A program made the position numbers and the translations under genes. Below, piece by piece: positions 4,978 through 53,136 of a stretch of DNA of 64,000 nt (its first letter is position 1; each line of letters begins with the position of its first letter). This DNA is from Candidatus Aegiribacteria sp. (GTDB lineage Bacteria > Fermentibacterota > Fermentibacteria > Fermentibacterales > JCC-6). Location: assembly GCA_030600545.1 (NCBI GenBank), contig JAUVLV010000006.1:359-64358 (forward strand), given 5' to 3'. The notes under the pieces are model-generated. The model searched no databases, was not told where the DNA came from, and was given only the letters and a program-made list of their open reading frames with translations.

Positions 4978-5429
4978 TGAAAGTACTACTTATCAAAAGT
5001 GTGGAAGACCTCGGCCTTGGGGGTGATGTTGTTGATGTAGCCGATGGATATGCAAGGAATTACCTGTTTCCCAGGAATTTTGCGATTAAAGCAACTCCCG
5101 CAGCTGTCAAATCAACCGAAATCTACAGGACAAAAGCCCTGAAAGAACAGGCAAGAATAAACGAGGAATCTCAGCAATTCGCGAAGAAGCTCAAGGATTT
5201 TGTTGTAGAGATTACAGCAGCAGCGGATGACACCGGGCATCTTTACGGAAGTGTCAACGAAAGGAACATTTGCGAGTCTATCAATGAATCAGGTTTCGAT
5301 ATAGATGTTGAGCAGGTGCTACTCAGCGAACACCTTAAATCAACAGGAGAGTATCCTGTTCCCATCAAGATCTACGGAGACATCCGTGCAGACATACTGG
5401 TCAGGATCCTCCCCGAAGAGGAAGAATAA
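4977..5429 (+). CDS. rplI: 50S ribosomal protein L9
   Basis: MKVLL...GYARNYLFP...LYGSV. Confidence 0.97.
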   Translation: MKVLLIKSVEDLGLGGDVVDVADGYARNYLFPRNFAIKATPAAVKSTEIYRTKALKEQARINEESQQFAKKLKDFVVEITAAADDTGHLYGSVNERNICESINESGFDIDVEQVLLSEHLKSTGEYPVPIKIYGDIRADILVRILPEEEE

Positions 5430-5434
5430 CCACT

Positions 5435-6448
5435 TTGCGGATTCTTGCCGTAGAAACATCCTGCGATGATACAGCGGTTGCGCTGCTTGATGGATGCAGA
5501 GCAATCGCTGAACGCATTTACCGCCAGGAAATACACTCAAAACACGGAGGTATTGTTCCTGAACTGGCTTCACGTAAGCATATGCAAATTCTCCCGGGTC
5601 TTGTCGAAGAAGTTCTTCGTGCCGGGGGAGTGAAAAGTTTTGAAGAAATCGATGCCTTTGCCGCAACAACGGGTCCGGGGCTGACGGGATCTTTGCTTGT
5701 GGGCCTTGCCTGGACCAAGGCGGCAGCATGGGCTTCCGGCAAACCCTTCCTGGGGATAAATCACCTGGCGGCACATTTGTATATTCATTATGGAGGAAAG
5801 AGACAGGTGGTATTTCCCGCTGCAGCCCTTCTCGTTTCCGGCGGTCATACCAGCCTTTTCAGAATGAACTCGTGGGAAGATATTCTTCTTCTTGGTTCAA
5901 CAAGAGATGACGCTGCGGGAGAAGCTTTTGACAAAACAGCAAAGCTTGCGGGACTGGGCTATCCGGGTGGTGCCGCTCTTGATCTTGCCGCTGACAGGGG
6001 TGACCCCGAGAAGGTTTCCCTTCCATCCCCAATAGCTGATCCGTCGATACCGGAATTCAGCTTCAGTGGTCTTAAAACAGCGGCTAAATTGCTCTGGGAG
6101 AAGGGAACAGATCGGAACGACCTTGCGGCTTCGTTCAGGAAAACCGTTGCTAATCTACTGGTATCGAAACTGATGTACCAGTGTGAAAAGCACAAAATGA
6201 AAAGTGTAATCGCAGCCGGTGGTGTTACGGCCAACAGCCTTCTCAGGCAGATTCTTAGGGAAGAATGTTCCGAAAAAAACCTGAACCTGTTTCTTCCGGA
6301 CAGGGAACATGCAACAGATAATGCTCTTATGGTAGGACGTGCCGCGGCAGCCATTCTTGAGAAAGATCCTGTGGCGTCTTCTCCGCTTTCATGCAATGCT
6401 TTCGCGAGATGGTCGGGGAAAACTCTTTCTCCCATCGGCTGCTACTGA
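5435..6448 (+). CDS. tsaD: tRNA N6-threonylcarbamoyltransferase TsaD
   Basis: ETSCDDT, GGIVPELASRKH, HLAAH, VSGGHT, DDAAGEAFDK, TDNA. Confidence 0.95.
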   Translation: MRILAVETSCDDTAVALLDGCRAIAERIYRQEIHSKHGGIVPELASRKHMQILPGLVEEVLRAGGVKSFEEIDAFAATTGPGLTGSLLVGLAWTKAAAWASGKPFLGINHLAAHLYIHYGGKRQVVFPAAALLVSGGHTSLFRMNSWEDILLLGSTRDDAAGEAFDKTAKLAGLGYPGGAALDLAADRGDPEKVSLPSPIADPSIPEFSFSGLKTAAKLLWEKGTDRNDLAASFRKTVANLLVSKLMYQCEKHKMKSVIAAGGVTANSLLRQILREECSEKNLNLFLPDREHATDNALMVGRAAAAILEKDPVASSPLSCNAFARWSGKTLSPIGCY

Positions 6449-6912: not shown

Positions 6913-8437
6913 GGAAATGGCTCAATACGACATGAGGGCAATTGAGAGTGGAACTCCCGGAGACGTTCTGATGGAAAAAGCCGGAACTCTGGCAGCGGAG
7001 AGAGCCATGAAAATGATTTCTCCCGATCAAGGACCGGTTATTGTATTTGCGGGGTCGGGAAATAACGGCGGAGATGGTCTTGTTTTAGCAAGAAAACTCC
7101 GTGAAAAATCGTACTATGCTCACGTGGTCCTTGTAAGTGCTCCTGGAAAAAGTCTTTCACACAACTGCCAGACAAACCTGAATCGATTCGTGCAGGATGG
7201 AGGCATTGTTATTCCTCTGGACGAGATGAACAGATTGCCTTATTCCCCCTCCCTTATAGTCGATGCCCTTCTGGGAACTGGTTTCAGAGGAAAGATCGAG
7301 GGAGTATTCGCCGAGTGTCTTGATAAAGCAAGTAATTATAGCTGCAAAGTACTTGCTGTAGACACCCCTTCCGGTATCAACGGAAGAACGGGAGAAACCG
7401 ATCCCCATACAGTACCAGCAGATGTAACCGTAACATTTGCCGCTCCGAAGGCTGGGCTTCTGTTTCCTCCAGGGTGCGGTTATTCAGGAAATATTTTCAC
7501 AGCTGATATCGGTATTGAAGTAACTAAGATGAAAAATCGCATGATCCCCGGGCTGAGTGATATTTACGCACTGCTTCCCGAAAGACCTGTTGACGGAAAT
7601 AAGGGAACGTTCGGAAAGTTGCTGCTGGTTAGTGGCTCTGAGACAATGCCGGGTGCTCCCCAGCTGATGTCACTAGGAGCCCTTCGCTCGGGAGCAGGTC
7701 TGGTTACCCTTTCCGTCCCTCTTTCCGCCCATCAGCTCATAGCAGGACGCATTCCCGAAGTGCTTTCATCGTACTTCCTTCCGGGGGATGCCACGGGAAT
7801 CCCTGACACTGATAATTTCCAGGCGGCAGCCGCAGGGCCAGGAATGGGAAACAATCCGGCAACTAAAAAGGTCATAAATCATATACTCAGCCACTGGGAC
7901 ATTCCGCTTGTTCTGGATGCGGATGCCCTTAACGTACTTGATAATCCTGTCGCGAATCTGAAAAGGTATCGGGGAAAGCTACTGATCACCCCTCATCCCG
8001 GCGAAATGTCAAGACTTATGAAATGCGATCCATCAAATATCGCCAGCAGGTCCTCAGCGGCTGGTAAGCTGGCCGACGCAGCTGGAATAACAATTGTGCT
8101 CAAAGGCAGGCCAACGATGATATTCCATCCAGATAAAGGCTCCTGCACCATCGCCGCGGGTAACAACGGGCTTGCAACCGGGGGAAGTGGTGATATACTG
8201 ACGGGAATTATTTCGTCCCTCGTGGCTCAGGGAATGGAACCCTTCAATGCAGGTATGCTCGGTGTTTACGTACACGGCCTCGCAGCTGATATAGCTATAG
8301 AGAATTCTTCCAAAAGATCCCTGATTCCATCGGATATTGCTTCCTGTCTTGGCCTGGCATTTAATGCAATAGAAAACGGAAAGAACAGTGACCTTCTGAC
8401 CTCTGGAGGCAAGTGGAACAGTGAGTACATTGATTAG
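6890..8437 (+). CDS. nnr: Bifunctional NAD(P)H-hydrate epimerase/dehydratase
   Basis: GNNGGDG, VDALLGTG, DTPSG, LDADALN, TPHPGE, GGSGD. Confidence 0.93.
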   Translation: MKYWVIPEEMAQYDMRAIESGTPGDVLMEKAGTLAAERAMKMISPDQGPVIVFAGSGNNGGDGLVLARKLREKSYYAHVVLVSAPGKSLSHNCQTNLNRFVQDGGIVIPLDEMNRLPYSPSLIVDALLGTGFRGKIEGVFAECLDKASNYSCKVLAVDTPSGINGRTGETDPHTVPADVTVTFAAPKAGLLFPPGCGYSGNIFTADIGIEVTKMKNRMIPGLSDIYALLPERPVDGNKGTFGKLLLVSGSETMPGAPQLMSLGALRSGAGLVTLSVPLSAHQLIAGRIPEVLSSYFLPGDATGIPDTDNFQAAAAGPGMGNNPATKKVINHILSHWDIPLVLDADALNVLDNPVANLKRYRGKLLITPHPGEMSRLMKCDPSNIASRSSAAGKLADAAGITIVLKGRPTMIFHPDKGSCTIAAGNNGLATGGSGDILTGIISSLVAQGMEPFNAGMLGVYVHGLAADIAIENSSKRSLIPSDIASCLGLAFNAIENGKNSDLLTSGGKWNSEYID

Positions 8438-8984
8438 CCGGAAAAAAGCCCTTGAATTACTTGAAGAGAATCTCAGCAACAGGAACCTCATACGTCACTG
8501 CCTGGCGTCCGAAGCCGTTATGCGCAGGCTTGCGGAGGACAGGGGAGAGGATCAGGATATCTGGGGTACTACCGGTCTTCTGCATGACCTTGACTACGAA
8601 AAAACCGCTGATAACCCCGCTAAACACGGTCTTGTTACCGCTGAAATGCTTGAGGGGCAGCTCCCGGAAGAATCGATAAATGCTATAAAAGCACATAATT
8701 ATGAGAATAACGGTATCGAGAGAGTTTCTAATCTGGATTATCTTCTCGCCGCAGGAGAGTCAATAACCGGTCTGATAGTTGCAGTTGCCCTGGTTTACCC
8801 CGGGAAGAAACTTCAGCCTGTAAAATTGAAATCAGTTACAAAGAGAATGAAAATGGCCGCCTTCGCCCGATCGGTTCCCAGAGAAACCATCAAAGATTGC
8901 TCCAGGGCCGGATACGAACTGAACGAATTTATTCGCCTTTCCCTTGAAGCAATGAAGGGGATAGCTTCGGAAATAGGCCTTTAA
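8421..8984 (+). CDS. HD-domain phosphohydrolase (HDIG-type)
   Basis: RHCLASEAVM, GLLHDLD, IKAH. Confidence 0.85.
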   Translation: MSTLISRKKALELLEENLSNRNLIRHCLASEAVMRRLAEDRGEDQDIWGTTGLLHDLDYEKTADNPAKHGLVTAEMLEGQLPEESINAIKAHNYENNGIERVSNLDYLLAAGESITGLIVAVALVYPGKKLQPVKLKSVTKRMKMAAFARSVPRETIKDCSRAGYELNEFIRLSLEAMKGIASEIGL

Positions 8985-9037
8985 CGACAAACGTCCTGTA
9001 ACTGCTGTTTGAATTCCTCTAATTTCATCTGTTCCAT
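8981..9037 (-). pseudogene. Possible N-terminal stump of an integron integrase
   Basis: MEQMKLEEFKQQLQDVCR*; divergent from the cassette array, where intI normally sits; weak resemblance to IntI N-termini. Confidence 0.3.
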
Positions 9038-9119
9038 ATCAACATCCCAGTAAATGTAACTGCACCATATCAGCGTTACAACAGTAATAGTGTACATATT
9101 CTTGTCAAGTCACATCGTC

Positions 9120-9149
9120 TTGACAGTTAAATAGCTTAATTAATATGAT
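9120..9149 (+). promoter_or_regulatory. Sigma70-type promoter upstream of the cassette array (Pc-like)
   Basis: TTGACA (9120-9125), 18 nt, TATGAT (9144-9149). Confidence 0.6.
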
Positions 9150-9181
9150 ATTGCTTAGTAGGTACATTATGCAAGCATCGA

Positions 9182-9213
9182 GATATGTTGCAGTTACATA
9201 ATCATTGTTCTCC
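9182..9213 (+). other. attI-like recombination site
   Basis: GTTACATAATCATTG|TTCTCC; GTTCTCCG (9207-9214) is the exact complement of CGGAGAAC opening attC1; no attC-type hairpin upstream. Confidence 0.55.
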
Positions 9214-9234
9214 GATAGAGCAGAAAGGAAATAA

Positions 9235-9774
9235 TTGCCTGAAAAATCAAAGGATCTCACAGAACATCGTATTATCTCAAGCATCTTAATCGTTCGGGAT
9301 ACGAAAGTTATTCTTGATTCTGATCTTGCTAAACTGTATGGAGTTGAAACTCGCCGTTTAAATGAGCAAGTTCGGCGTAATCTTTCCAAATTCCCAGATG
9401 ACTTTATCTTTCAATTGTCCAAAGAGGAATTCGAAATCTTGAAGTCGCAAATTGCGACATCAAGTTCCAGCTGGGGTGGACGCAGAAAACCACCAATTGT
9501 CTTTACTGAGTATGGCGCATTACAGGCTGCAAATTTGCTGAGCTCAGAACAGGCAAACAGAATGAGCGTTTTCATTATACGAGCATTTATCAAACTGCGC
9601 GAAATGGCATTCACAAACGAAATACTATCCCGGAAATTCGAGCAATTGGAAAAACAAGTCACTGAACATGATGAAATCTTGATAAAATTAGTTCAAGAAA
9701 TTAGAAAACTGATAGATCCACCCAAGACTTCAGCAAAGAAAGCGATAGGTTTTAGAAGTCCCGATAAGAAGTAA
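9235..9774 (+). CDS. ORF6N-domain protein (cassette 1)
   Basis: VILDSDLAKLYGVET...NEQVRRN...FPDDFIFQL...GGRR...FTEYG; C-terminal IGF. Confidence 0.9.
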   Translation: MPEKSKDLTEHRIISSILIVRDTKVILDSDLAKLYGVETRRLNEQVRRNLSKFPDDFIFQLSKEEFEILKSQIATSSSSWGGRRKPPIVFTEYGALQAANLLSSEQANRMSVFIIRAFIKLREMAFTNEILSRKFEQLEKQVTEHDEILIKLVQEIRKLIDPPKTSAKKAIGFRSPDKK

Positions 9775-9782
9775 TAATATGC

Positions 9783-9864
9783 GGAGAACAAATGCATGAA
9801 CCAGTCACAAATGCAAAGCTATGACCCAGAGTAATATCTGTGCTGGTTATGCAGAGCGTTAGAG
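9783..9864 (+). repeat. attC site 1 (82 bp)
   Basis: GGAGAAC-AAAT-GCATGAACCAGTCACA...TGTGCTGGTTATGC-AGAGC-GTTAGAG, imperfect palindrome with bulged bases. Confidence 0.88.
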
Positions 9865-9909
9865 AGTGAAAATAGCTTACACCGATAACGAAGTGGAAGA
9901 AAGGAAATA

Positions 9910-11199
9910 ATGAAACAGGAAATTCTTAATCTAAGTATTTCTTTCTCCCTTCTGTTTTTCTCAATATGCAATACCTTTGCTGAACCAATCCCTGAAGTAT
10001 CTGTAACGGGTTCTTCTGCTCCAGAAGCTCATGAAATCTTCTCTATTGAAACATCTGAGGATCTTGAATCAATTCTAACTGACGGCTACCCTTTGCCATG
10101 GGTTGCTGAAATCCTTGAAGACGAAACTATTCCAGAGAAAGACAGATATTGGCTTGACTGTCGGATAAGAGCAATCATTGCCCAGGATTTGCATACTTTC
10201 TTCAACAGAGAGGGAGAACCGGTTCAAGTAGATGCTGATTGGATAAGGTATGGTGAGGATTACTGGCAGGAACACTTCATCGTCAATCCGCCAGGAGAGT
10301 TTCCTATGGGAGAGTATAACCAGATTTCACTTACATTTGACACAGAGCCAGATCCAGTAACTGGATTATGGGGAGAGAATGGGTTTGCTTACAATCGATT
10401 TGGAGAGAAAACTGGTGAGTTTGCTCTTTGCAACACATCCTTACAGCTCTCAAGAGATGGTTCTATTGGCTTAGTGCTTGCTAGAGGTTCACAGAGAGTA
10501 ACTGAATATGGTCCAGTTTATCTCTATTTTGTCCATAGCGATGGAACTTTTTACAAAAATCCTGAAGAACTCTGGATTTACGACTATTCTCTTAGCAAAA
10601 GTGGTGAATTCGCTTTACTAGTTCAAAGAAAAGAAAATGAGCCAGACTCGATTGAAATGTTTGACAGAAGAGGGAATCTGATTTGGGAGCAGGAAGTAAC
10701 GGCAACAATGTATCAGCGAATATCAATCTCACCAAACAACGAATTGTGCTTGATTCCATCAAGTCAGCGAAATCCAATCAATCACTATATCCAAGTTCTT
10801 AATACCGCTGATGGTAGTGAACTGGAGGTATACAATGAATATCCGATTTTCTCTCCTGATGGAGAAATAGTATGCATTGGATCAACAGTATGTGTATCCT
10901 CCGACAATCTTACTGAAATATGTTCTATCGGAAATCCAGATGAGAGTTTGTCTACTTATGACTTAAGCATTGATAACAACGCAAATCTTTTTGCTGGAAT
11001 ACTACATCCACCAGAAGCCTTGATTTCAGAAGAAACAAAACTAGCAGTATGGTCTCAAAATGGCTTGATAATACTGGAGCAACCTTTCGTTCGGAACGAG
11101 AATATCGTTCTTTCTCCAAACGGAGCATTCGCTATGGTCTTCTCAGAATACAGCAATACCTCTTCAACTTCATGCACGATTTGGAGGATTGATTTTTGA
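9910..11199 (+). CDS. Secreted hypothetical protein, probable beta-propeller (cassette 2)
   Basis: Signal-peptide-like N-terminus; repeated SRDG/SPNN/SPDG/SPNG blade motifs; RBS AAGGA. Confidence 0.7.
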   Translation: MKQEILNLSISFSLLFFSICNTFAEPIPEVSVTGSSAPEAHEIFSIETSEDLESILTDGYPLPWVAEILEDETIPEKDRYWLDCRIRAIIAQDLHTFFNREGEPVQVDADWIRYGEDYWQEHFIVNPPGEFPMGEYNQISLTFDTEPDPVTGLWGENGFAYNRFGEKTGEFALCNTSLQLSRDGSIGLVLARGSQRVTEYGPVYLYFVHSDGTFYKNPEELWIYDYSLSKSGEFALLVQRKENEPDSIEMFDRRGNLIWEQEVTATMYQRISISPNNELCLIPSSQRNPINHYIQVLNTADGSELEVYNEYPIFSPDGEIVCIGSTVCVSSDNLTEICSIGNPDESLSTYDLSIDNNANLFAGILHPPEALISEETKLAVWSQNGLIILEQPFVRNENIVLSPNGAFAMVFSEYSNTSSTSCTIWRIDF

Positions 11200-11289
11200 A
11201 GGTGCTAAATAGCGTACCAGCCCGCTGCGCGCGCCCACATCTAAAAGTAAATTTAAGTTACTTGAAAGATTTGAATTATGAGAATTAAT

Positions 11290-11372
11290 CTCTAACAACC
11301 AAATTCAACAGAACTGCGGCTATGTTCTCCCAAAGTTATGTTATTGCAGTCAGCTGATTTGGAGCGTTATGG
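11290..11372 (+). repeat. attC site 2 (83 bp)
   Basis: CTCTAAC-AACCAAATTCAACAGAACTGC...GCAGTCAGCTGATTTGGAGC-GTTATGG; CTCTAAC complements GTTAGAG of attC1. Confidence 0.88.
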
Positions 11373-11388
11373 CTAAAAAAGGAGGACA

Positions 11389-13140
11389 GTGATGCTAGTA
11401 TTTGTTTCATTGGTTATTTCTCTGGTCTCTGCAACGAGTGTTTCAATAACAGAACCGATTGATGGGGAAACCTACGATGGCGACTGGCTGACCGTTCGTG
11501 CAATTGTGGAGAATGAGAACGAAACTCCAGACTCAGTTCATTACAGTCTAAACGGCCTATCCGTTATTCAGATCCCCAGGCTGGACACTGATTGGCCAAC
11601 TTACATGCAGAATTACCAGAGGCATGGATACTCCGAATCACCGGCACCACATACATCAGATATTCTGTGGACTGCTCCGGTCTGCGGAGATTATCATGAA
11701 TTCCCAACTCCTGCGGTTGTGGATGGGACGGTATACTATCCACAGGACGGTGTTGGAGCGGGAGATACTCTCTTTGCTCTCGATTCAGCAACAGGTTCGA
11801 TAAAGTGGTCCTACCCGGTGGGATATACTGATGACACGGTTACACTCAAGAACGGTCTGCTTTATTCTGCATCGGATTCTCTTTTCTGCCTGGATGCAGG
11901 GACCGGAGCAAGGGTATGGGCATGGGGAGATGAAGCTGATTTCCACCAGACCGGCAGCCCTATCGTGACCAATGGTGTTGTGTATTTTGCCACTAGCCAT
12001 GATTATGACACTTCAAGAGTATATGCAGCAGACGCAGCATCGGGTCTGATCATCTGGGAGACCGGGTTCTCAGGTGCGCTTGAGACCAGTCTTGCATATT
12101 TCGATAATACCATATACATAGCTCTGTTTACAGATTTTATGGATTACGACGATCATGAGTCTTTGTTCGCTCTTGATGCCTCGTCCGGTTCCATTCTATG
12201 GTCTAACGACCATACCGATGGAGGATACTGGGACTCGTCTCCGAACATCTATGAAGGGATGCTGTACATCGATGGATGGGATGGTTGCCTGCACGCTTTC
12301 GATGCAGAGAATGGTGTTCTCGCATGGGAAACAGTATTACATCCCGCCTCCTATCTATTCGGTGTCGAACCAACACCCGCGATACATGATGATCTACTGT
12401 TTATCGGTTGCTGTTTCTACGGATGCGGAACGCCTTTCGGTTATGTAGGAGCTCACTCCACGACAACTGGTTCGGAAGTATGGAGTATTGTTGATAGGAT
12501 AGAGCTCCATGGCTCGTTCGGCCTGGCAGAAGATCTCGCATTCATAGGATCATTCACAAAAGACAGTATATTCGCATTCGATCAGTCAACCGGTGAGATC
12601 GAATGGGTTTATGGATTCCAGGGAACCAGGTATGATGGTTGTCAATCAAGCCCTTCCATAACAGATGGTGTCATGTATATCGCTGCAACTGACGGTAATC
12701 TTTACGCATTCGGCACAGGTCTCAAATTCACCTACCTTGATGATCTTTTCGCTGGAGTAGGAGCCAATGAATTGATAGCAACTTCCTTTTATGAAGGAGT
12801 TGCTATGGCAGTTGATACGATCAACTTCACCGTGACTGGTACTGGAATCGAACTTGATCCATTTCGCATGCTTCAGATCAGCGTAAGCCCTAATCCTTTC
12901 CATTCAACCGCAAGCATCTCGTTCGAGCTTGCAGAGCCTGGATGGACGATGGTGTCCGTGTACGACCTCTCGGGTAGGACCGTCAGAACACTAGAGAATT
13001 CAGAACTCGGAGCCGGTCAGCACTCAGTAGCCTGGGATGGAACAGGTGAAAACGGTGAGATTCTTGCAACAGGTGTCTATATCTGCAGAATACAATCCGG
13101 AGGATTTTCTAAAACCACAGGTCTGTGTCTGTTGAGATAG
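11389..13140 (+). CDS. Secreted PQQ-like beta-propeller protein with FlgD-Ig/T9SS-like C-terminal domain (cassette 3)
   Basis: Repeated ALDxxTGxxxW blades; C-terminal SPNPF...YDLSGR...WDG...GVYICR. Confidence 0.88.
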   Translation: MMLVFVSLVISLVSATSVSITEPIDGETYDGDWLTVRAIVENENETPDSVHYSLNGLSVIQIPRLDTDWPTYMQNYQRHGYSESPAPHTSDILWTAPVCGDYHEFPTPAVVDGTVYYPQDGVGAGDTLFALDSATGSIKWSYPVGYTDDTVTLKNGLLYSASDSLFCLDAGTGARVWAWGDEADFHQTGSPIVTNGVVYFATSHDYDTSRVYAADAASGLIIWETGFSGALETSLAYFDNTIYIALFTDFMDYDDHESLFALDASSGSILWSNDHTDGGYWDSSPNIYEGMLYIDGWDGCLHAFDAENGVLAWETVLHPASYLFGVEPTPAIHDDLLFIGCCFYGCGTPFGYVGAHSTTTGSEVWSIVDRIELHGSFGLAEDLAFIGSFTKDSIFAFDQSTGEIEWVYGFQGTRYDGCQSSPSITDGVMYIAATDGNLYAFGTGLKFTYLDDLFAGVGANELIATSFYEGVAMAVDTINFTVTGTGIELDPFRMLQISVSPNPFHSTASISFELAEPGWTMVSVYDLSGRTVRTLENSELGAGQHSVAWDGTGENGEILATGVYICRIQSGGFSKTTGLCLLR

Positions 13141-13143
13141 GAA

Positions 13144-13223
13144 CCATAACCAGAGGCTGCAGTGGAATACTACTCGCTGAATCCAATTCCTTGTAGGACT
13201 ATCCACTGAGCCTATTGTTTGGT
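13144..13223 (+). repeat. attC site 3 (80 bp)
   Basis: CCATAAC-CAGAGGCTGCAGTGGAATA...TATCCACTGAGCCTATT-GTTTGGT; CCATAAC complements GTTATGG of attC2. Confidence 0.9.
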
Positions 13224-13232
13224 ACAAGACAT

Positions 13233-13826
13233 ATGAATGGAAACAAACGACGGTACACCGTTCGCCAAGCTACGGAAGCAGATTTACCCGTCCTTGCGGA
13301 CATCAAGTCACCAATGGCCATCCACAAAGACCGCCTTCTGGATGCGGACAGCGAGAAAATGCTCTACATGATTATTGAGGAATTCGGTACTGTTATTGGA
13401 TTCGGACTTCTCGTTTTCAAGCGTCCACCCACTTGGCCTGACGCTAACGACAGCTCCCATCTCCCGGCGATGGTCGACTTGCTTGTCAGCCCGGACCGTC
13501 GGAGTCGTGGTGCGGGATCATTCCTCATCAGTTGGATGGAGGAAACCATACGCTCCAGAGGAGGTAACCATTTGTACATGTGCGTGGACCCGGTCGATAA
13601 TCCAAGAGCCCATCAACTCTACCTGCGTCTGGGATACTCAACTCTCCAGACACAGCCATACAGGTCACATTGGAAGTTCGCGGATTCTGACGGAAACGTG
13701 CACGAAGGAAACGTATGGAACATTGATATGGTGAAGGATCTAAGTCAGAAAACACGGGGGTCACCCAACACTTATGAGGCCACCCTCTGTCAAGGGGCAA
13801 AGTTCGTCACTGACAGCATGTGCTAA
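13233..13826 (+). CDS. GNAT N-acetyltransferase (cassette 4); C-terminus runs into IS sequence
   Basis: VSPDRRSRGAGS acetyl-CoA motif, NPRAHQLYLRLGY; ATG 13233 used because the track start 13215 lies inside attC3. Confidence 0.85.
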   Translation: MNGNKRRYTVRQATEADLPVLADIKSPMAIHKDRLLDADSEKMLYMIIEEFGTVIGFGLLVFKRPPTWPDANDSSHLPAMVDLLVSPDRRSRGAGSFLISWMEETIRSRGGNHLYMCVDPVDNPRAHQLYLRLGYSTLQTQPYRSHWKFADSDGNVHEGNVWNIDMVKDLSQKTRGSPNTYEATLCQGAKFVTDSMC

Positions 13827-14249
13827 CTGTTTTCATTTATCGTCTTGTATTCAGTCTTCGCGTTCTGTCTTAGTTTCAATATCAGGTTCTGCGCCAAACA
13901 CTTATCGAGGATCTGCGGCTCATCCTTGATGAACCGGGAAGGATTCTTCCTTCTCGTCCTAGAAACACATACGTTCCCTCATGCCGTCCCATTCACAACG
14001 TCGGGCTGAATGCCGTAGCATTCACCAGTTAGCTCCGGGTTCGGGGGAGGAGCAGAACACTTCATCGAATACTTATCATTTCTGCGGGAGCGAAGCGACC
14101 ATCCAATCAAAGCGTATGTTTACCTGGAATGCGCTGAGGTACCTTCATCCTGGTCAAGGCCAGATTCTCTCGAAGTTTCTCTTCGAGGGTACTCATCCAG
14201 CTTCTTCCTTTCGGTCACAGTTAGCTGTTCGGCTTGGCCGCTCCCTCCC
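13770..14249 (-). ncRNA. Candidate bridge/seek RNA region; exact RNA ends unknown
   Basis: 480-nt region downstream of the IS110 recombinase with many hairpins, a C(UACG)G tetraloop and copies of the element-end motif. Confidence 0.6.
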
Positions 14250-15296
14250 TTATACTCTGAGGAATTTTTTCATATCGAATGCCTTCTCGCGCTTTAGCAT
14301 ATAGTAGACCGTTCTTCCAAGCTTGTGGGCAAGGATGAAAAGAGACTTGGCTTTGCCATGTTTTCTCTCCAGCCGCTTCTTGTACTTCATCCCTTCCGAA
14401 TTTCCACGCAGGAACAGTACAGCAGCTTCGGAGAACGTCCACTTCAGATGAACATTCCCGATCTTGCTTCCGGAAGTTCCATATCGTTTTCCGGCGGATT
14501 CTCTGGCACATTTCACCAGCCTGCTGTATGAAGCAAAGTTCTGCACCCTCGGGAAGCGGTTAATGTCTCCTATCTCGTAGAGAATCGTCAGAGACAAGAT
14601 TTTCCCGATTCCATAAATGGTTCGGAGCAGGTGAAGTGACTGTGGATCATGGTTCTTTGCATTGCTCAGAACATGCTTTTTCATGGCTCTGATCTGAACT
14701 GCAAATTGGTCTATCATATCCATATTGGTCTTCATACTCATGTATACATTCGGATCGGTGAAGTGACTCAGAACCTCTTCACGGCGACATTTGTGAGTGA
14801 TATTGGAAGTGCCGAAGAGAGGCTGATTGTACTGGCTGTTCGTGTTCTGAACATGGGTGATAAGATCAGCCCTCTTCCGAACCAGGTAATTTCTTCTTCT
14901 CAGAAGATCTCTCGTTGCCCTCATCTTCGCAGGATAGACATAGGCCATGGGGAACATTCCGCCTTTGAGCATGACAGCTATCTTTCCCGAATCTATCCTG
15001 TCGTTCTTGGCTTTTCCGCCATGGATGGCTTTCATGTACAAGGCATGACCAAGAGTGAAAGGTATTCCTTCCTCTGCACATAGATCCGCCACCCAGTACC
15101 AGGTGAAGATGCATTCCACTCCGATGACTATATCCGGTCTGTATGGTTCGATAGCTTTGAGAAGGGATTCCGGATCAGCTTTCATGTTCCGGTGAAGAAC
15201 GATTTCACCATCTGAACTGATGATGCAGAGATACATCACCCTGGCGTGTAGGTCGATGCCGCAGTAATATTGGTGTGTGGTAGTATAGAATCTCAT
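14250..15296 (-). CDS. IS110-family DEDD transposase/recombinase
   Basis: GIDLH, GVEC and KNDRID (DEDD); GIGKIL; ESAGK with candidate catalytic Ser; RBS AGGAGG. Confidence 0.95.
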   Translation of the reverse strand: MRFYTTTHQYYCGIDLHARVMYLCIISSDGEIVLHRNMKADPESLLKAIEPYRPDIVIGVECIFTWYWVADLCAEEGIPFTLGHALYMKAIHGGKAKNDRIDSGKIAVMLKGGMFPMAYVYPAKMRATRDLLRRRNYLVRKRADLITHVQNTNSQYNQPLFGTSNITHKCRREEVLSHFTDPNVYMSMKTNMDMIDQFAVQIRAMKKHVLSNAKNHDPQSLHLLRTIYGIGKILSLTILYEIGDINRFPRVQNFASYSRLVKCARESAGKRYGTSGSKIGNVHLKWTFSEAAVLFLRGNSEGMKYKKRLERKHGKAKSLFILAHKLGRTVYYMLKREKAFDMKKFLRV

Positions 15297-15732
15297 TGGG
15301 TCTCCTCCTTGTTAGGGAAAAAGTTATCACCCTCAGCATACCAGAATGGCATGCCGAGGGGGAGGCCTCAATGAGTATCAGAGGAATCTGGTTCACTCCT
15401 GATCATTGTGAAACATATACTCAATTAGGAGGTGCTTCAGGGATTCCTGACAGGAATATTTTCCAGAATATTGTTAGTGGTGCAGTTGATATTGCTATAG
15501 CACCTTTTTCGGCCTTTCAGGATTATCTGATAGAGATTCAGCAGGTATCTATTCCGTTTCATATGAAATCTTCAGGCAGAATCCCAGAACTCTTGAATAT
15601 CTTGCAGCAGCACCAGCAGATACCGGTAATTTCGGAGAAAGATTCCTTATGGGGATGTGTGATGAGCTTCCTAATGGAAATTCGCCTTGATACCGGGCAA
15701 TATTCCCTGAATCGAATTCCGCTATTAAGGTT

Positions 15733-15884
15733 TGATCAATGACTCAGTCATGGTCGAAAAGTATACTTCCAGGTTTTCTCGATCGGAACCTGATGGTTAC
15801 TTTTTCTTCTGCTTCGCCTGTTTCCTGGCGAGGCTGATAACAGTTCTCGCTGCAGCGATTCTTATCTCCCTGGAATCGTTCCTG
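15733..15884. repeat. Diverged direct repeat, copy A (duplicate of GGDEF-HEAT gene 3' end and downstream flank)
   Basis: 152 bp, 10 mismatches by hand count versus 17564-17715. Confidence 0.95.
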
Positions 15885-16653
15885 CCCAGTTTCGAAGAAT
15901 CTCCGGGAAAAGCTTTACCCTAAGGAGGTCGTTCCTTCCGGGAACGAATGGTTCCACATCCCTTACAAGGTCATCAATGCTTCTTTCGCCAAGGCGATTT
16001 AATATAAGCTCCTCGATCTTATTTCTGGAAGAAATCTGAACCTTCTGCTCAAGGAAATTCATATCCGGTTTTGTGATTCCGAATAGATGAGAGGCGTCAT
16101 AAAGATCACGACCCATGATTCTCCTGCGGTTCAGTATGGCATATAGCTTCTGGGCCAGAATCAGTTCAGCGGGAGCTGCAGGTACTGGAACGATCACATC
16201 CAGGCGGTTCAGCACCTTTACCCGCGGTGTATAGCTATACCGCTGCGGTGAAGCGTCAAACTTGAGGGTGAGCACCTCATCTCTATGGCGCGTGAGTTCC
16301 CACTGTTGAAGGATATTAGTGAATCTGAACTTTGTTGAAAACGCGGTTCCTCTGCCAAAAGATATATTGCACTCAACAGCCTCTAATTTGAATTCATTAA
16401 CTGCTGTCAGGGCTATTCGCTGAAGAGCATCACCGGAAAGGTTCTTTGAATCAAAGTCAAGATCTTCGGAAAACCTGCTGCTTCCATAGAATACTCTCAA
16501 TGCTGTTCCACCCATGAAAACCAGTCCGCTGCTTTCCTTCGCTCTGAAAATGAACTGAAGTGTTTTGTACTGCAGGTATTCCCTTAGCATGGCTCTTTTA
16601 AAGGTATCGGGAATGCCGGGGAAAGCGTCATAGACGATCGAATGGTCAAGCAT
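15862..16653 (-). CDS. abiEii: AbiEii-type nucleotidyltransferase toxin (type IV TA)
   Basis: FMGGTALR, RFSEDLDF, AQKL, RDLYD. Confidence 0.92.
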   Translation of the reverse strand: MLDHSIVYDAFPGIPDTFKRAMLREYLQYKTLQFIFRAKESSGLVFMGGTALRVFYGSSRFSEDLDFDSKNLSGDALQRIALTAVNEFKLEAVECNISFGRGTAFSTKFRFTNILQQWELTRHRDEVLTLKFDASPQRYSYTPRVKVLNRLDVIVPVPAAPAELILAQKLYAILNRRRIMGRDLYDASHLFGITKPDMNFLEQKVQISSRNKIEELILNRLGERSIDDLVRDVEPFVPGRNDLLRVKLFPEILRNWAGTIPGR

Positions 16654-17260
16654 TTTTCATCACCTCAATCAATATTTTTACCTTCCTTGTCAGCCAGGGC
16701 TTGTTGAACCGTTCTGCCATGTCGAGGATCTCCATTGGATCCAATCCGCTAAAAGTCTCCGTGTCAAAACGTAGTTCCAGCATATCCTCCGCCGAGCTGA
16801 TATCCCTCCTGAAGTAGAGCAGATCAACAACCGCTCTCTCCGGAAAAGCCATAAGATATCTGTGATTTCTTCCCGTCTTTGCTTCATAACCGAAGAGATA
16901 CTCCGGCTGAATGCTTCTGTATATGAATGTGCATAGAGGTGAATCGATGCGACGGGTCTTTCTTGTGCAGACAGAAGTGACAGAAAGAACTGTCTCCGGA
17001 ATGAGCTCGTAAAATGAAAGTGCTGATTCCAGAGAAACGAACGAGGGTGTGTATATCCTGCCGGCAATTGCAAATAGATCGGTCTCTTCACTGGTTTCCC
17101 CCGTTAGAACATAGTATCCGGGAGCCACCATTATGATCTTTCCGCTACGGTTCCACCTGGAAAGGGTTTCCTGACGAAGACCGGGCATTGTGCTCCTTAC
17201 ATCAGCAAGTGAAACAACCGGCAACTTCTTCGCTATTTCAGCAAATTCGTGCAACCTCAA
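16646..17260 (-). CDS. abiEi: AbiEi-type antitoxin / transcriptional regulator
   Basis: PSFVSLESALSFYELIPE, PERAVVDLLY; overlaps the toxin start. Confidence 0.88.
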   Translation of the reverse strand: MRLHEFAEIAKKLPVVSLADVRSTMPGLRQETLSRWNRSGKIIMVAPGYYVLTGETSEETDLFAIAGRIYTPSFVSLESALSFYELIPETVLSVTSVCTRKTRRIDSPLCTFIYRSIQPEYLFGYEAKTGRNHRYLMAFPERAVVDLLYFRRDISSAEDMLELRFDTETFSGLDPMEILDMAERFNKPWLTRKVKILIEVMKNA

Positions 17261-17563: not shown

Positions 17564-17715
17564 TGATTAATGACTCAGTCATGGTCGAAAAGTGTACTTC
17601 CAGGTTTTCTCGATCGGAACCTGATGGTTACTTTTTCTTCTGCTTCGCCTGTTTCCTTGCGAGGCTGATGACTGTTCTGGCTGCTGCGATCCTTACCTCC
17701 CTGGAATCGTGCCTG
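17564..17715. repeat. Diverged direct repeat, copy B
   Basis: Matches 15733-15884 at offset 1831. Confidence 0.95.
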
Positions 17716-19616
17716 AGAAGCTCGTCAAGATAAGCCTTTGAAAGAGCGTATTTGCCTGTAGAGGCCCATCGGAGCATCGATACTATTCCTTTTCTGGTAA
17801 GTTTCAGCTTGTTGCCGGCCACCCTGTCAATGATCCTTGCCAGATCGTAACCTCTGGGAGTAACCTCCCGAGATTTCATGCTTTCCAGAAGAGCTTCAAA
17901 TTCATCTGGATCAGCGGTTTTGTCGAGACTGTCGAGAAGCCATTTTGAAGTTCTTACCGATGCTTTACCTGGCAATCGTCCAAGAAATCTAAGAACCGCA
18001 ATACGGTCACTGCGTCTTTTCAGTTTAATGCCTGTAAATGAAAATTCCAGTTTTTCAAGCAATCTCGCAGACACTCCATGAGGATCGAACCTGTCCAGCT
18101 GCTGCAGAAGATCAAAATAATCTCCACTGTCCATAGTTTTCAGCATTTCATCAACACAGATCTGTCCCCCGAGCGTAAGCAGTGTCTTCCATACGATTTT
18201 CTTCTTTACGCCCGGGTTCTCTCTGAGAATATCAACCACCGCGCCTGCCAGGCGCGGGTTCCCGAGGAATGCGGCACCCTCCAGGGCTGCGGCAAGTTCC
18301 TGCCTGTGGTTCAGCCAGAACCTTCCCTCAATGGGTTTTCCAAGTTCGTCTTTCAGGATTTCTGCTGCCCCCTGCCAGCCGCTTATACCCAGACCCCGGA
18401 GAGCTGCCCTTCGAACCCAGGTGTTTCCGTCATTAACAGCATTCTTCAGAAGAACTCCAGCCTTCCTTCCCAGTACAAATGGTAACGCCATTGTCGCAGC
18501 GGTTCTGACATGTGCATTACTGTCCTTCATCGCGATCTTCAAAGCCTCTTCTGAATCCCGTCCCGCAATGTTTCCAAGAGCTCTTGCAGCACTCTTACGT
18601 ATTTTATGATCGTTCTCCCTGTTAAGGATTTCAATCAGGCAGCCTGCCATTTTAGTATCTCCAAGGATACCCGCGGATTCAATCAAGGCCTTGATCTCCA
18701 CAGTATCCGGTTCCGAATTCCGAAGCCAGTCCGCGAAATCATGATATTCGGGTATTTCATCTCCTTCATTGAGAAAACTGGCGACCGTGTCGGGAAGGAG
18801 TTCTCCCTTCAGTCTTTTCTTCTCCAGTCCGGCCCTGCGTGCAAGTTCTTCCACACTGCTGCAACCTGATCCATCAATTATCGATACGGTAATGTCCATT
18901 ACGGGATAGAACCGGAATTCTCCGGATCTGTCCAGGGCTTCGATTCCGCCTGCGGCATGATCCCTGCCGCTGTAGAAACCCCCGGCCCTTCCGTTGAAAA
19001 TCCTTGTGGCCCGTTTGACGGATTCCACAAAATCATTGCCTTCACCTACTGCTACGAAATCGTCTCCCCCAACATGGCCGACAAAATATCCGGACAGGTT
19101 TTCAGTCAGTATTGACGCCACCGCGCGGAGTACGGCATCCCCTCGACTGAAGCCGTAGTAGTCGTTGAAAGGTTTGAACCCGGATATATCGAAGTAGGCT
19201 GCCAGGCCGTGTCCATCAACTACAACGGAATTAAGACTGGATGTAATGGAAATGTTTCCGGGAAGCCCCGAGAGAGGATTTCTTGTACTTGCGCTTTCAA
19301 GGAGTTTTGAAATACCGTGAAGAGTTGCCCGAATGGTCTTTTCCGACGTTCCGGCGGGAATAAACCCGGCAGCTCCGGTATCAAGCCACTGCTCAATGTT
19401 CTCATCCGAGCAGTATACCAGCCAGGGAGTTTCAGAACTGCAAAAATCTCTGATGATTCCCAGCACCGTACCGGGATCCTGATTTCCCGAAACAAGAACG
19501 GCGGAGCAGTCCTTGCGGTTGCAGCTACCTATATCAGTGAAACCTGGAAATGGGGAATTTTCATCTCCCATCCATACGAATTTACCTGATGGCTGCTCTC
19601 CCATCGTACCACTCAA
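17628..19616 (-). CDS. GGDEF-domain protein fused to HEAT repeats
   Basis: NPLSGLPG, FDISGFKPFNDYYGFSRGD, GHVGGDDF; HEAT-like IRKSAARALG, VRRAALRGLG. Confidence 0.85.
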   Translation of the reverse strand: MSGTMGEQPSGKFVWMGDENSPFPGFTDIGSCNRKDCSAVLVSGNQDPGTVLGIIRDFCSSETPWLVYCSDENIEQWLDTGAAGFIPAGTSEKTIRATLHGISKLLESASTRNPLSGLPGNISITSSLNSVVVDGHGLAAYFDISGFKPFNDYYGFSRGDAVLRAVASILTENLSGYFVGHVGGDDFVAVGEGNDFVESVKRATRIFNGRAGGFYSGRDHAAGGIEALDRSGEFRFYPVMDITVSIIDGSGCSSVEELARRAGLEKKRLKGELLPDTVASFLNEGDEIPEYHDFADWLRNSEPDTVEIKALIESAGILGDTKMAGCLIEILNRENDHKIRKSAARALGNIAGRDSEEALKIAMKDSNAHVRTAATMALPFVLGRKAGVLLKNAVNDGNTWVRRAALRGLGISGWQGAAEILKDELGKPIEGRFWLNHRQELAAALEGAAFLGNPRLAGAVVDILRENPGVKKKIVWKTLLTLGGQICVDEMLKTMDSGDYFDLLQQLDRFDPHGVSARLLEKLEFSFTGIKLKRRSDRIAVLRFLGRLPGKASVRTSKWLLDSLDKTADPDEFEALLESMKSREVTPRGYDLARIIDRVAGNKLKLTRKGIVSMLRWASTGKYALSKAYLDELLRHDSREVRIAAARTVISLARKQAKQKKK

Positions 19617-36963: not shown

Positions 36964-37041
<78 letters not shown>

Positions 37042-37660: not shown

Positions 37661-37737
37661 TGGTCGGGGCGACTGGATTCGAACCAGCGACCACTTGAAC
37701 CCCATTCAAGTGCGCTACCGGACTGCGCCACGCCCCG
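37661..37737 (-). tRNA. tRNA-Pro(GGG)
   Basis: Cloverleaf with CTTGA-ATGGGGT-TCAAG anticodon arm, TTCGAATCC, CCA. Confidence 0.96.
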
Positions 37738-53060: not shown

Positions 53061-53136
53061 TGGAGCCGGCGAACGGAATCGAACCGTTGACCTGCGCATT
53101 ACGAATGCGCTGCTCTGCCAGCTGAGCTACGCCGGC
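53061..53136 (-). tRNA. tRNA-Thr(CGT)
   Basis: GCCGGCG...GCGCA-TTCGTAA-TGCGC...GGTTCGATTCC...CCA. Confidence 0.96.

Follow-up and report, generated by a model that had tools for sequence, protein, structure and literature searches.

What is the row of four co-oriented genes that stands between a conserved housekeeping gene and an insertion sequence (IS) in the genome of a little-studied, uncultured sediment bacterium, and can it still rearrange? The row lies in a stretch of 64,000 nt (hereafter the window) from a metagenome-assembled genome (MAG) of Candidatus Aegiribacteria sp. (NCBI assembly GCA_030600545.1, contig JAUVLV010000006.1). The MAG (G000) has a size of 2.29 Mb, consists of 74 contigs and is 73% complete; the window corresponds to C47:359-64358. 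A first-pass annotation, made from the nucleotide sequence of the window, proposed an unannotated integron cassette array with chained core sites. We conclude with high confidence that ~8999-15380 represents the proximal portion of a sedentary chromosomal integron in this MAG of Candidatus Fermentibacteria/Aegiribacteria, and that the integrase gene has been deleted to 13 codons. The kind of element is well known; the lineage is not.

All attC calls in the window rest on R1, a genus-specific covariance model. Its training alignment, A3, includes 18 attC sites adjoining bona fide integron integrase genes (intI): nine from G015:C169, three from G015:C127, four from G007, and one each from G024 and G029. 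None was taken from the source genome. A search of the 64 kb window with filters switched off, in which all matches with E<=10 were listed, returned four matches. Three of them are on the plus strand, namely attC1 at 9783-9864 (62.5 bits, E 7e-11), attC2 at 11290-11372 (53.3 bits, E 6e-9) and attC3 at 13144-13223 (29.4 bits, E 6e-4); the remaining match is attC3 read on the minus strand (18.1 bits). No matches were obtained in 51 kb of unrelated loci. The first-pass annotation had placed three hairpins of 80-83 bp at exactly these positions and had named the absence of covariance matches as one of two observations that would speak against an array; as the matches exist, this objection does not apply. 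In the whole source genome R1 finds 10 sites at E<=0.1, five of them on C3, two on C47 and one each on C57, C4 and C26. In addition, attC1 shows 92% identity over 76 nt to two attC sites of a complete integron in the congener G015.

The structure behind the model is supported by compensatory changes. In A3, 92.6% of cells are paired, compared with 22-37% after shifting the 3' partners by 1-3 columns. Nine of the 15 pairs are altered on both sides, and the number of doubly changed cells is 49 versus 14.8 +/- 3.1 in shuffles. The triplets AAC and GTT are invariant in all 18 congener sites. The three sites of the window, 80-83 nt long, have a common layout: seven bases ending in AAC, a spacer of 2-3 nt, a stem of 5-6 bp, one unpaired base, a second stem of 6-7 bp, a loop, both stems again, a spacer of 3-4 nt, and GTT followed by four bases. 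In the R1 alignment the one unpaired base between two 6-bp stems is the 9th nucleotide after AAC both in the three window sites and in the training set. In attC sites of class 1 and Vibrio integrons the extrahelical base of the bottom strand is G, whereas here it is C or A. The features that mark a site as attC (R'' and R' boxes, an imperfect hairpin, an extrahelical base on the R''-L'' arm, a spacer and a variable loop) are present in all three sites. In this respect the sites agree with the description of attC given in PMC5027507, where R'/R'' boxes, extrahelical bases close to L'', a central spacer that is unpaired and a terminal structure that varies are specified.

A second line of evidence comes from the cores. 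In a chain of cassettes, each GTT is followed by four bases whose reverse complement stands before the next AAC. This rule holds at all four positions for cassette 1 (GTTCTCC 9207-9213 and GGAGAAC 9784-9790), cassette 2 (GTTAGAG 9858-9864 and CTCTAAC 11290-11296) and cassette 3 (GTTATGG 11366-11372 and CCATAAC 13144-13150), and at three of four positions for cassette 4 (GTTTGGT 13217-13223 and ACCCAAC 13763-13769, with one mismatch). By comparison, the 12 non-cognate combinations of cores match at two of four positions at most. The rule is also observed in 13 of 15 adjacent site pairs from four intI-linked arrays of congeners, and at the attI junction of G015 (GTTCACT/AGTGAAC). All four pairs, including the single mismatch, had been recognized in the first-pass annotation; the only correction is that the last one ends at 13769, not at 13770. 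Its suggestion that the cassettes were integrated as circles at G|TT is borne out by the complementarity of the cores, and in our reading each of the four co-oriented cassettes represents a circle that entered by recombination at G|TT.

Could the hairpins be unrelated palindromic repeats, of the repetitive extragenic palindromic or terminator-like kind, with core complementarity arising by coincidence? Several results are weak points of the integron reading, and those from folding and from the hairpin scanner speak for this explanation. The z-scores of bottom-strand folds are modest, -1.88, -0.24 and -2.88 for attC1, attC2 and attC3, so that folding alone is not decisive; fold energies are alike for both strands, and attC2 is ordinary. 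The folding of bottom strands proposed in the first-pass annotation does not separate the two strands and is not significant for attC2. Rfam searches (gathering thresholds for the whole window, E<=10 for 8500-15000) found no attC-type family, their output being limited to three tRNAs and two chance-level matches. Moreover, our home-made scanner for AAC..GTT hairpins found 17 hairpins in the genome at a score of >=20, while ten control triplets gave 2-16 (16 for GAA) and AAT gave 37, which weakens the evidence from the scanner itself. Because it discriminates weakly, the scanner was used solely for locating candidates and was then replaced by the covariance model for attC calls. On the other hand, the model that detects the sites was trained on sites adjoining integron integrases, four consecutive cores are chained, the strand does not vary, nor does the position of the extrahelical base, and another species (G020, see below) has a different cassette after the same junction. 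A coincidence of palindromes is extremely improbable; we regard it as effectively refuted by the covariation, the R1 matches and the differing cassette of G020.

The left boundary of the array bears on its origin. The row of housekeeping genes rplI-tsaD-nnr-HD ends with an HD-domain gene (8421-8984, plus strand; Pfam HD), the last conserved housekeeping gene left of the element. On the minus strand, 13 codons starting from the ATG at 9037-9035 (8999-9037; MEQMKLEEFKQQL) are homologous to the N-terminus of a congener's integron integrase (IntI), which reads (M)DLETIKEFKQQLLERK.. in G012. After these 13 codons the frame diverges. The complete translation from this ATG is MEQMKLEEFKQQLQDVCR and ends with a stop at 8983-8981, which is the stop codon of the HD gene.

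The stub is followed by a module (9038-9209, plus strand) that ends with AATCATT G|TT. Homologous copies of the module are found on C51 of the same genome, in G020 and in G012, and homology among them breaks off at GTTC(T), 9207-9211. The copy on C51 (C51:56827-57043; L050 ~8828-9044) is 89% identical over 217 nt, with identity ending at GTTCT. It sits downstream of recO-glyS-GT2, carries the same short intI stub, and is followed by a different, toxin-like (RelE-like) open reading frame (ORF); the contig ends 290 nt later. In G020 the module stands behind the same HD gene, its identity to the window ends at GTTC, and a different cassette follows the junction, the attC of which scores 24 in the hairpin scanner. 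G012 has two copies (73-76% identity over ~210 nt), which border directly on intI coding sequence of the opposite strand; in tblastn, IntI residues 5-104 fall immediately next to the module (L059:1523-1221). Finally, the attI of the complete integron in G015 and the window module share AATCATT|GTT, a AGTGTACATAT box and a GTCA..GGTCACA box.

Within the module, a Pc-like promoter TTGACA-18-TATGAT (9120-9149, plus strand) faces the cassettes and is the best such site (11/12) in 8900-14000; its -35 box TTGACA is kept in the copies on C51, in G020 and in G012. The module also contains an inverted repeat of 18 nt (9054-9199, arms 9054-9071 and 9182-9199, 94% complementary), which possibly represents integrase-binding boxes. 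We read 9038-9209 as a putative attI with Pc, and 8999-9037 as the probable remnant of intI, because of the module copies, their position next to intI in G012, the stub codons and the junction motif of G015. It must be counted against this reading that attI is assigned from homology and position, and that the likeness to the attI of G015 is patchy.

The conserved module together with the 13-codon stub points to a decayed integron rather than to cassettes dropped at a random site. The alternative is that a distant integrase inserted the cassettes at a secondary non-att site and that an integron platform was never here. Such an origin is listed as (ii) among those of attC clusters that lack an integron-integrase (CALIN) in Cury et al. 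2016 (PMC4889954), and it would fit the fact that the closer relatives G018 and G012 are without the module at the HD locus. However, ~200 nt before the first G|TT are homologous to the intI-abutting module of G012, including 13 intI codons, and the same module and junction recur on C51 and in G020. We consider an insertion at a secondary site very unlikely. A decayed integron, in turn, would mean that the integrase gene was lost down to 13 codons while attI and the cassette-facing promoter remained.

The term CALIN was defined for IntegronFinder (Cury et al. 2016, PMC4889954), and it was the term that the first-pass annotation applied to this array inside a housekeeping region. The part of it that stands is the presence of three attC sites and the lack of an intact integrase: a tblastn search with congener IntI gave no match in the window. 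The refinement is that an attI-like module and an intI stub make it a decayed integron. In their account of CALIN origins, Cury et al. include intI loss and IS-linked rearrangement, and they report intI pseudogenes near 15 of 279 CALIN elements in a search that needed >50% profile coverage (PMC4889954). The array resembles CALIN as described there in having three attC sites and no intI in the window; unlike most CALIN, it retains an attI module and an intI stub of 13 codons, which is below the coverage of that search. Owing to the surviving stub and module, an origin by integrase loss can be read directly, and the locus displays together an intI stub, a putative attI, a Pc-like promoter, cassettes and a terminating IS that seeks attC. 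Sedentary chromosomal integrons with decayed integrases occur in Xanthomonas. The array is similar to them in its chromosomal position beside a conserved housekeeping gene, in its species-variable cassettes and in the decay of the integrase. The differences are the phylum (Fermentibacteria), an integrase gene that is nearly all deleted rather than mutated, and the presence elsewhere in this genome of a further orphan attI module, likewise at a housekeeping locus.

A further prediction of a cassette array is that its content varies between relatives; a gene order fixed across them had been named in the first-pass annotation as evidence to the contrary. We examined 12 loci of relatives, in all of which nnr was matched, and HD in 10. 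The order of genes is not fixed: none of the four cassette genes is present downstream of nnr/HD in any of the 12 loci, four of which end within 1.3 kb of HD and carry little weight, and G020 has a different cassette after the same junction. In eight relatives a single conserved gene on the minus strand comes after HD (after nnr in G012). The orthologue of this gene in the source genome is located on another contig, at C4:5555-7945. From its start, C4 carries an attC (852-926, R1 52 bits), a cassette that encodes a 49% identical paralogue of the cassette 3 protein of the window and is bounded by GTTATGG/CCATAAC cores as in the window, an IS copy, a cassette rich in GC (GTTGGGC/GCCCAAC), a last attC (5189-5249, 21 bits), and then the ancestral neighbour gene. 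As the ancestral neighbour lies on C4 behind more cassettes and an IS copy, the window contains no more than the proximal portion of a split array. Most simply, C47 and C4 carry the opposite ends of a single array that sits between HD and the ancestral neighbour gene.

Two side observations concern the same loci. Between the last attC of C4 (L011) and the ancestral neighbour gene there is an ORF of 63 aa (5353-5544), the start of which (..INDLQLAGMSEKTQEAF..) looks by eye like the SAM-like domain at the N-terminus of a tyrosine recombinase, and the ORF may represent a further recombinase remnant. Several contigs of congeners (L022, L025, L027, L030) end at or within ~1.3 kb after nnr/HD, and others (L069-L072) end ~1-1.7 kb downstream of the HEAT-GGDEF gene, which also occurs further right in the window. 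Both loci may thus contain repeats or vary between strains.

On the right, the array of the window is bounded by an element of the IS110/IS1111 type, delimited by blastn as a repeat (13767-15380, ends +/-3 nt, minus strand). Its transposase gene (14250-15296, minus strand) encodes a DEDD protein of 348 aa with Pfam PF01548 (DEDD_Tnp_IS110) and PF02371 (Transposase_20). Downstream of this gene, ~480 nt (14250 back to ~13770) are non-coding. Subterminal inverted repeats are imperfect, TGAGGCC(A)CCCTC and GAGGG(GGA)GGCCTCA, and are built on TGAGGCC/GGCCTCA; by the estimated boundaries, the terminal extensions beyond them are ~5 and ~10 nt. We also considered the hairpin 13770-13790/15355-15380 as a pair of arms of a fourth attC and rejected it, as the comparison of IS copies shows these segments to be the subterminal repeats of the IS.

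A blastn search against the genome revealed copies or fragments of the IS on C3, C4, C26 and C30. Only the window copy has an uninterrupted transposase frame; those on C3 and C4 match in two pieces with residues missing, and on C26 (L009) the left end of the IS lies at the contig end (12972-13112). All five left ends in the genome are preceded by AAC, and the flanks are otherwise unrelated. The copies with both ends (in the window, on C3 and on C4) all stand directly after an R'' box that is verified by the chain of cores or supported by the model. On C4 the IS flanks are chain-verified (GTTATGG/CCATAAC and GTTGGGC/GCCCAAC). Removal of the IS from C3 would restore AAC-AA-TCGAAT-A-GAGCCG ... 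CGGTTC-ATTCGA-AGC-GTT with consensus spacing, and the portion right of that IS scores 26.7 bits with R1.

The fourth inverse core of the first-pass annotation, ACCCAAC (R'', 13763-13769, plus strand; 3/4 complementary to GTTTGGT), now stands at the left IS junction. The core is genuine insofar as the IS selected it as an R'' box, but it is not followed by a recognizable 3' half of an attC. In our reading the fourth attC was split directly after AAC by an attC-seeking element. Elements with this habit are known. For IS1111 members, PMC11187229 mentions a longer non-coding region downstream of the transposase gene, subterminal inverted repeats of 11-13 bp, and 7- and 3-bp extensions, and an IS1111-attC group (ISPst6, ISKpn4) that targets one end of attC (Tetu & Holmes 2008 and Post & Hall 2009, cited therein). 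The window IS is like this group, so far as it is characterized there, in its DEDD transposase, long downstream non-coding region and subterminal inverted repeats, and in inserting at one attC end in a fixed orientation. It differs in that its host is not a proteobacterium, and in extensions of ~5 and ~10 nt versus the stated 3 and 7 nt; we regard it as a candidate member of the group. The nearest plasmid-borne transposases are 51-60% identical products of unnamed 'IS110 family' genes, and the Vibrio campbellii plasmid context of the closest relative held nothing informative.

What follows the IS is a weak point of our interpretation. The 3' half of the fourth attC, sought right of the IS with R1 and by folding, is not recognizable: the segment 15381-15732 gives no R1 match, has fold z-scores of -1.2/-1.5, and has no homologue in relatives. 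Further to the right are an AbiEii/AbiEi pair and a HEAT-GGDEF gene. The neighbourhoods of HEAT-GGDEF genes in relatives (12 loci, 51 kb) contain no R1 matches and no IntI, and so the right-hand part of the window is a different locus. The segment 15381-15732 probably belongs to such a different locus joined at the IS. The join arose either in the genome, through rearrangement between IS copies, or in the assembly, at a repeat. Since the MAG is fragmented and 73% complete, it may be chimeric.

Is the array still active? We searched 41 genomes, 24 of them of the same genus, with the NCBIfam profile TIGR02249 (integron integrase). Matches above the cut-off were obtained in 18 of the 41, including 14 of the 24 congeners, so that integrons are common in this uncultured sediment lineage. 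The assembled 73% of the source genome gave none (best score 102 bits versus a cut-off of 265). No intact integrase was found in the assembled source genome; apart from the 13-codon stub, there is only a C-terminal remnant of 60 residues on C26. Consequently, activity cannot be claimed for the array, a further point that an integron interpretation has to bear. The array is most likely frozen, because no integrase is present in the assembled part of the genome, and IntegronFinder would report it as CALIN. Excision or insertion would now take place only with an integrase supplied in trans.

On C26 (L009), the span 7581-8531 contains this remnant, a frame of 77 codons that comprises the last ~60 IntI residues (..RSPLDDL), 51% identical to the G015 protein, and, following it on the other strand, a higB/higA cassette and an attC at 8449-8531. 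The source genome therefore contains several decayed integron pieces, with an intact integrase absent from the assembled part. As for the integron integrases of the genus (L034 12651-13835 and other intI loci), the full-length uninterrupted matches include frames of ~395-489 aa. They have an N-terminal extension of ~85 residues, without a Pfam match, ahead of the SAM-like domain.

Public assemblies provide independent data on the integrity of the locus. We aligned Logan contigs on 8400-15500, using four runs that stem from as many studies (cold seep, marine sediment, sediment and 'soil'). Logan contigs drop rare variants, so that excision circles may escape them, and areas without contig cover in some runs were left uninterpreted. 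In all four runs an error-free contig over HD and the stub ends at 9034, the start of the repeated module. Loose ends occur inside attC1, before 9787 and behind 9853, and the latter runs on as ..GTT plus other cassettes. At the IS junction there are loose ends before 13767, one of them with ..GGCCAT before AAC. A loose end behind 9215 leads into a cassette of the C51 type (X7). The word depth is ~100 over attC1 and the IS versus ~8 over cassettes 2-4. These contig ends confirm the element boundaries where the model places them. At the same time, attC2 is bridged by a contig of X5 (11165-11976), and attC3 by contigs of X5 (13055-13679) and X7 (12736-13494). It follows from the bridging contigs that the order of cassettes 2-3-4 is the same in different studies. 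This argues for an array that is stable rather than shuffling in this population. The joint 9860->11294 (X5; side of 21 nt, depth 9.5) would delete cassette 2, and it is too short-sided to count.

These data bear on the possibility that the array is still active, being served in trans, like the other orphan attI/attC arrays, by an integrase whose gene lies in a genome part missing from the assembly or on a co-resident element. The MAG is merely 73% complete, attC scores equal those of complete integrons, the cores are unmutated, three attI junctions (C47, C51 and G020) have three different first cassettes, and there are at least five arrays in the genome. All this would be expected of an active system. 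Yet the assembly has no intI above the cut-off besides the stub and the C26 remnant, public contigs bridge attC2 and attC3 in the order of the window, and a single weak, short-sided joint is all that suggests cassette loss. We treat ongoing activity in trans as an unlikely, though not negligible, alternative to a frozen array.

A broader idea, which we put forward tentatively and consider doubtful, is that orphan platforms of attI and promoter are kept at several housekeeping loci and, though stripped of all but a few intI codons, are still fed with different cassettes by integrases encoded elsewhere; Fermentibacteria would then have a distributed system served in trans instead of dead remnants. 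Two such platforms are present in this genome, and the same HD locus carries one in a species whose Nnr is 73% identical. Further hints are the three junctions with three first cassettes at an identical G|TT, and the three stubs, the ends of which lie within ~30 nt of each other.

All four cassettes lie on the plus strand downstream of the Pc-like promoter, from which they would be transcribed. Cassette 1 (9208-9858) encodes an ORF6N/KilA-N-like protein (ORF 9235-9774 with a TTG start; Pfam PF10543, E 1.7e-30). Cassette 2 (9859-11366) encodes a protein of 429 aa (ORF 9910-11199) that has a weak match to DUF5711 below the Pfam cut-off; we read it as a secreted protein. Cassette 3 (11367-13217) encodes a PQQ-like beta-propeller with a FlgD-Ig / type IX secretion system (T9SS) C-terminal tail according to Pfam (ORF 11389-13140). 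Cassette 4 (13218-13769) encodes a GNAT acetyltransferase (ORF 13215-13826; Pfam PF00583), the final ~19 codons of which extend into the IS. Cassettes 1 and 2 share an identical 14-nt ribosome-binding stretch, AGAAAGGAAATAAT, immediately ahead of their start codons (9222-9235 and 9898-9911). In the G015 integron a similar GAAAGGAA precedes the first cassette. No antibiotic-resistance genes were recognized among the cassettes, the GNAT protein of cassette 4 being a generic acetyltransferase, and we see no medical relevance of the array.

A literature search for integrons in Fermentibacteria/Aegiribacteria returned unrelated papers only, although genomes of this kind may figure in supplementary tables of large surveys. 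Cassette pools in metagenomes of cold seeps and marine sediments can be mapped with the genus-specific attC model and with the attI junction motif.

Several other features of the window and the genome deserve mention. The AbiEii/AbiEi toxin-antitoxin pair right of the IS (15862-17260, minus strand) is flanked by a direct repeat of 152 nt (15733-15884 and 17564-17715, 93% identical). It is a duplication of sequence from the 3' end of the HEAT-GGDEF gene (17628-19616), with the stop codon of AbiEii located in the first copy. In G015, AbiE genes that are 84% identical are found near the orthologue of this HEAT-GGDEF gene. The three tRNAs detected with Rfam are encoded on the minus strand at 36967-37041, 37664-37737 and 53064-53136. 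Lastly, hairpins flanked by AAT...ATT are over-represented genome-wide, with 37 at a score of >=20 and 26 at >=22, the top values among the triplets tried, which suggests another family of palindromic repeats.

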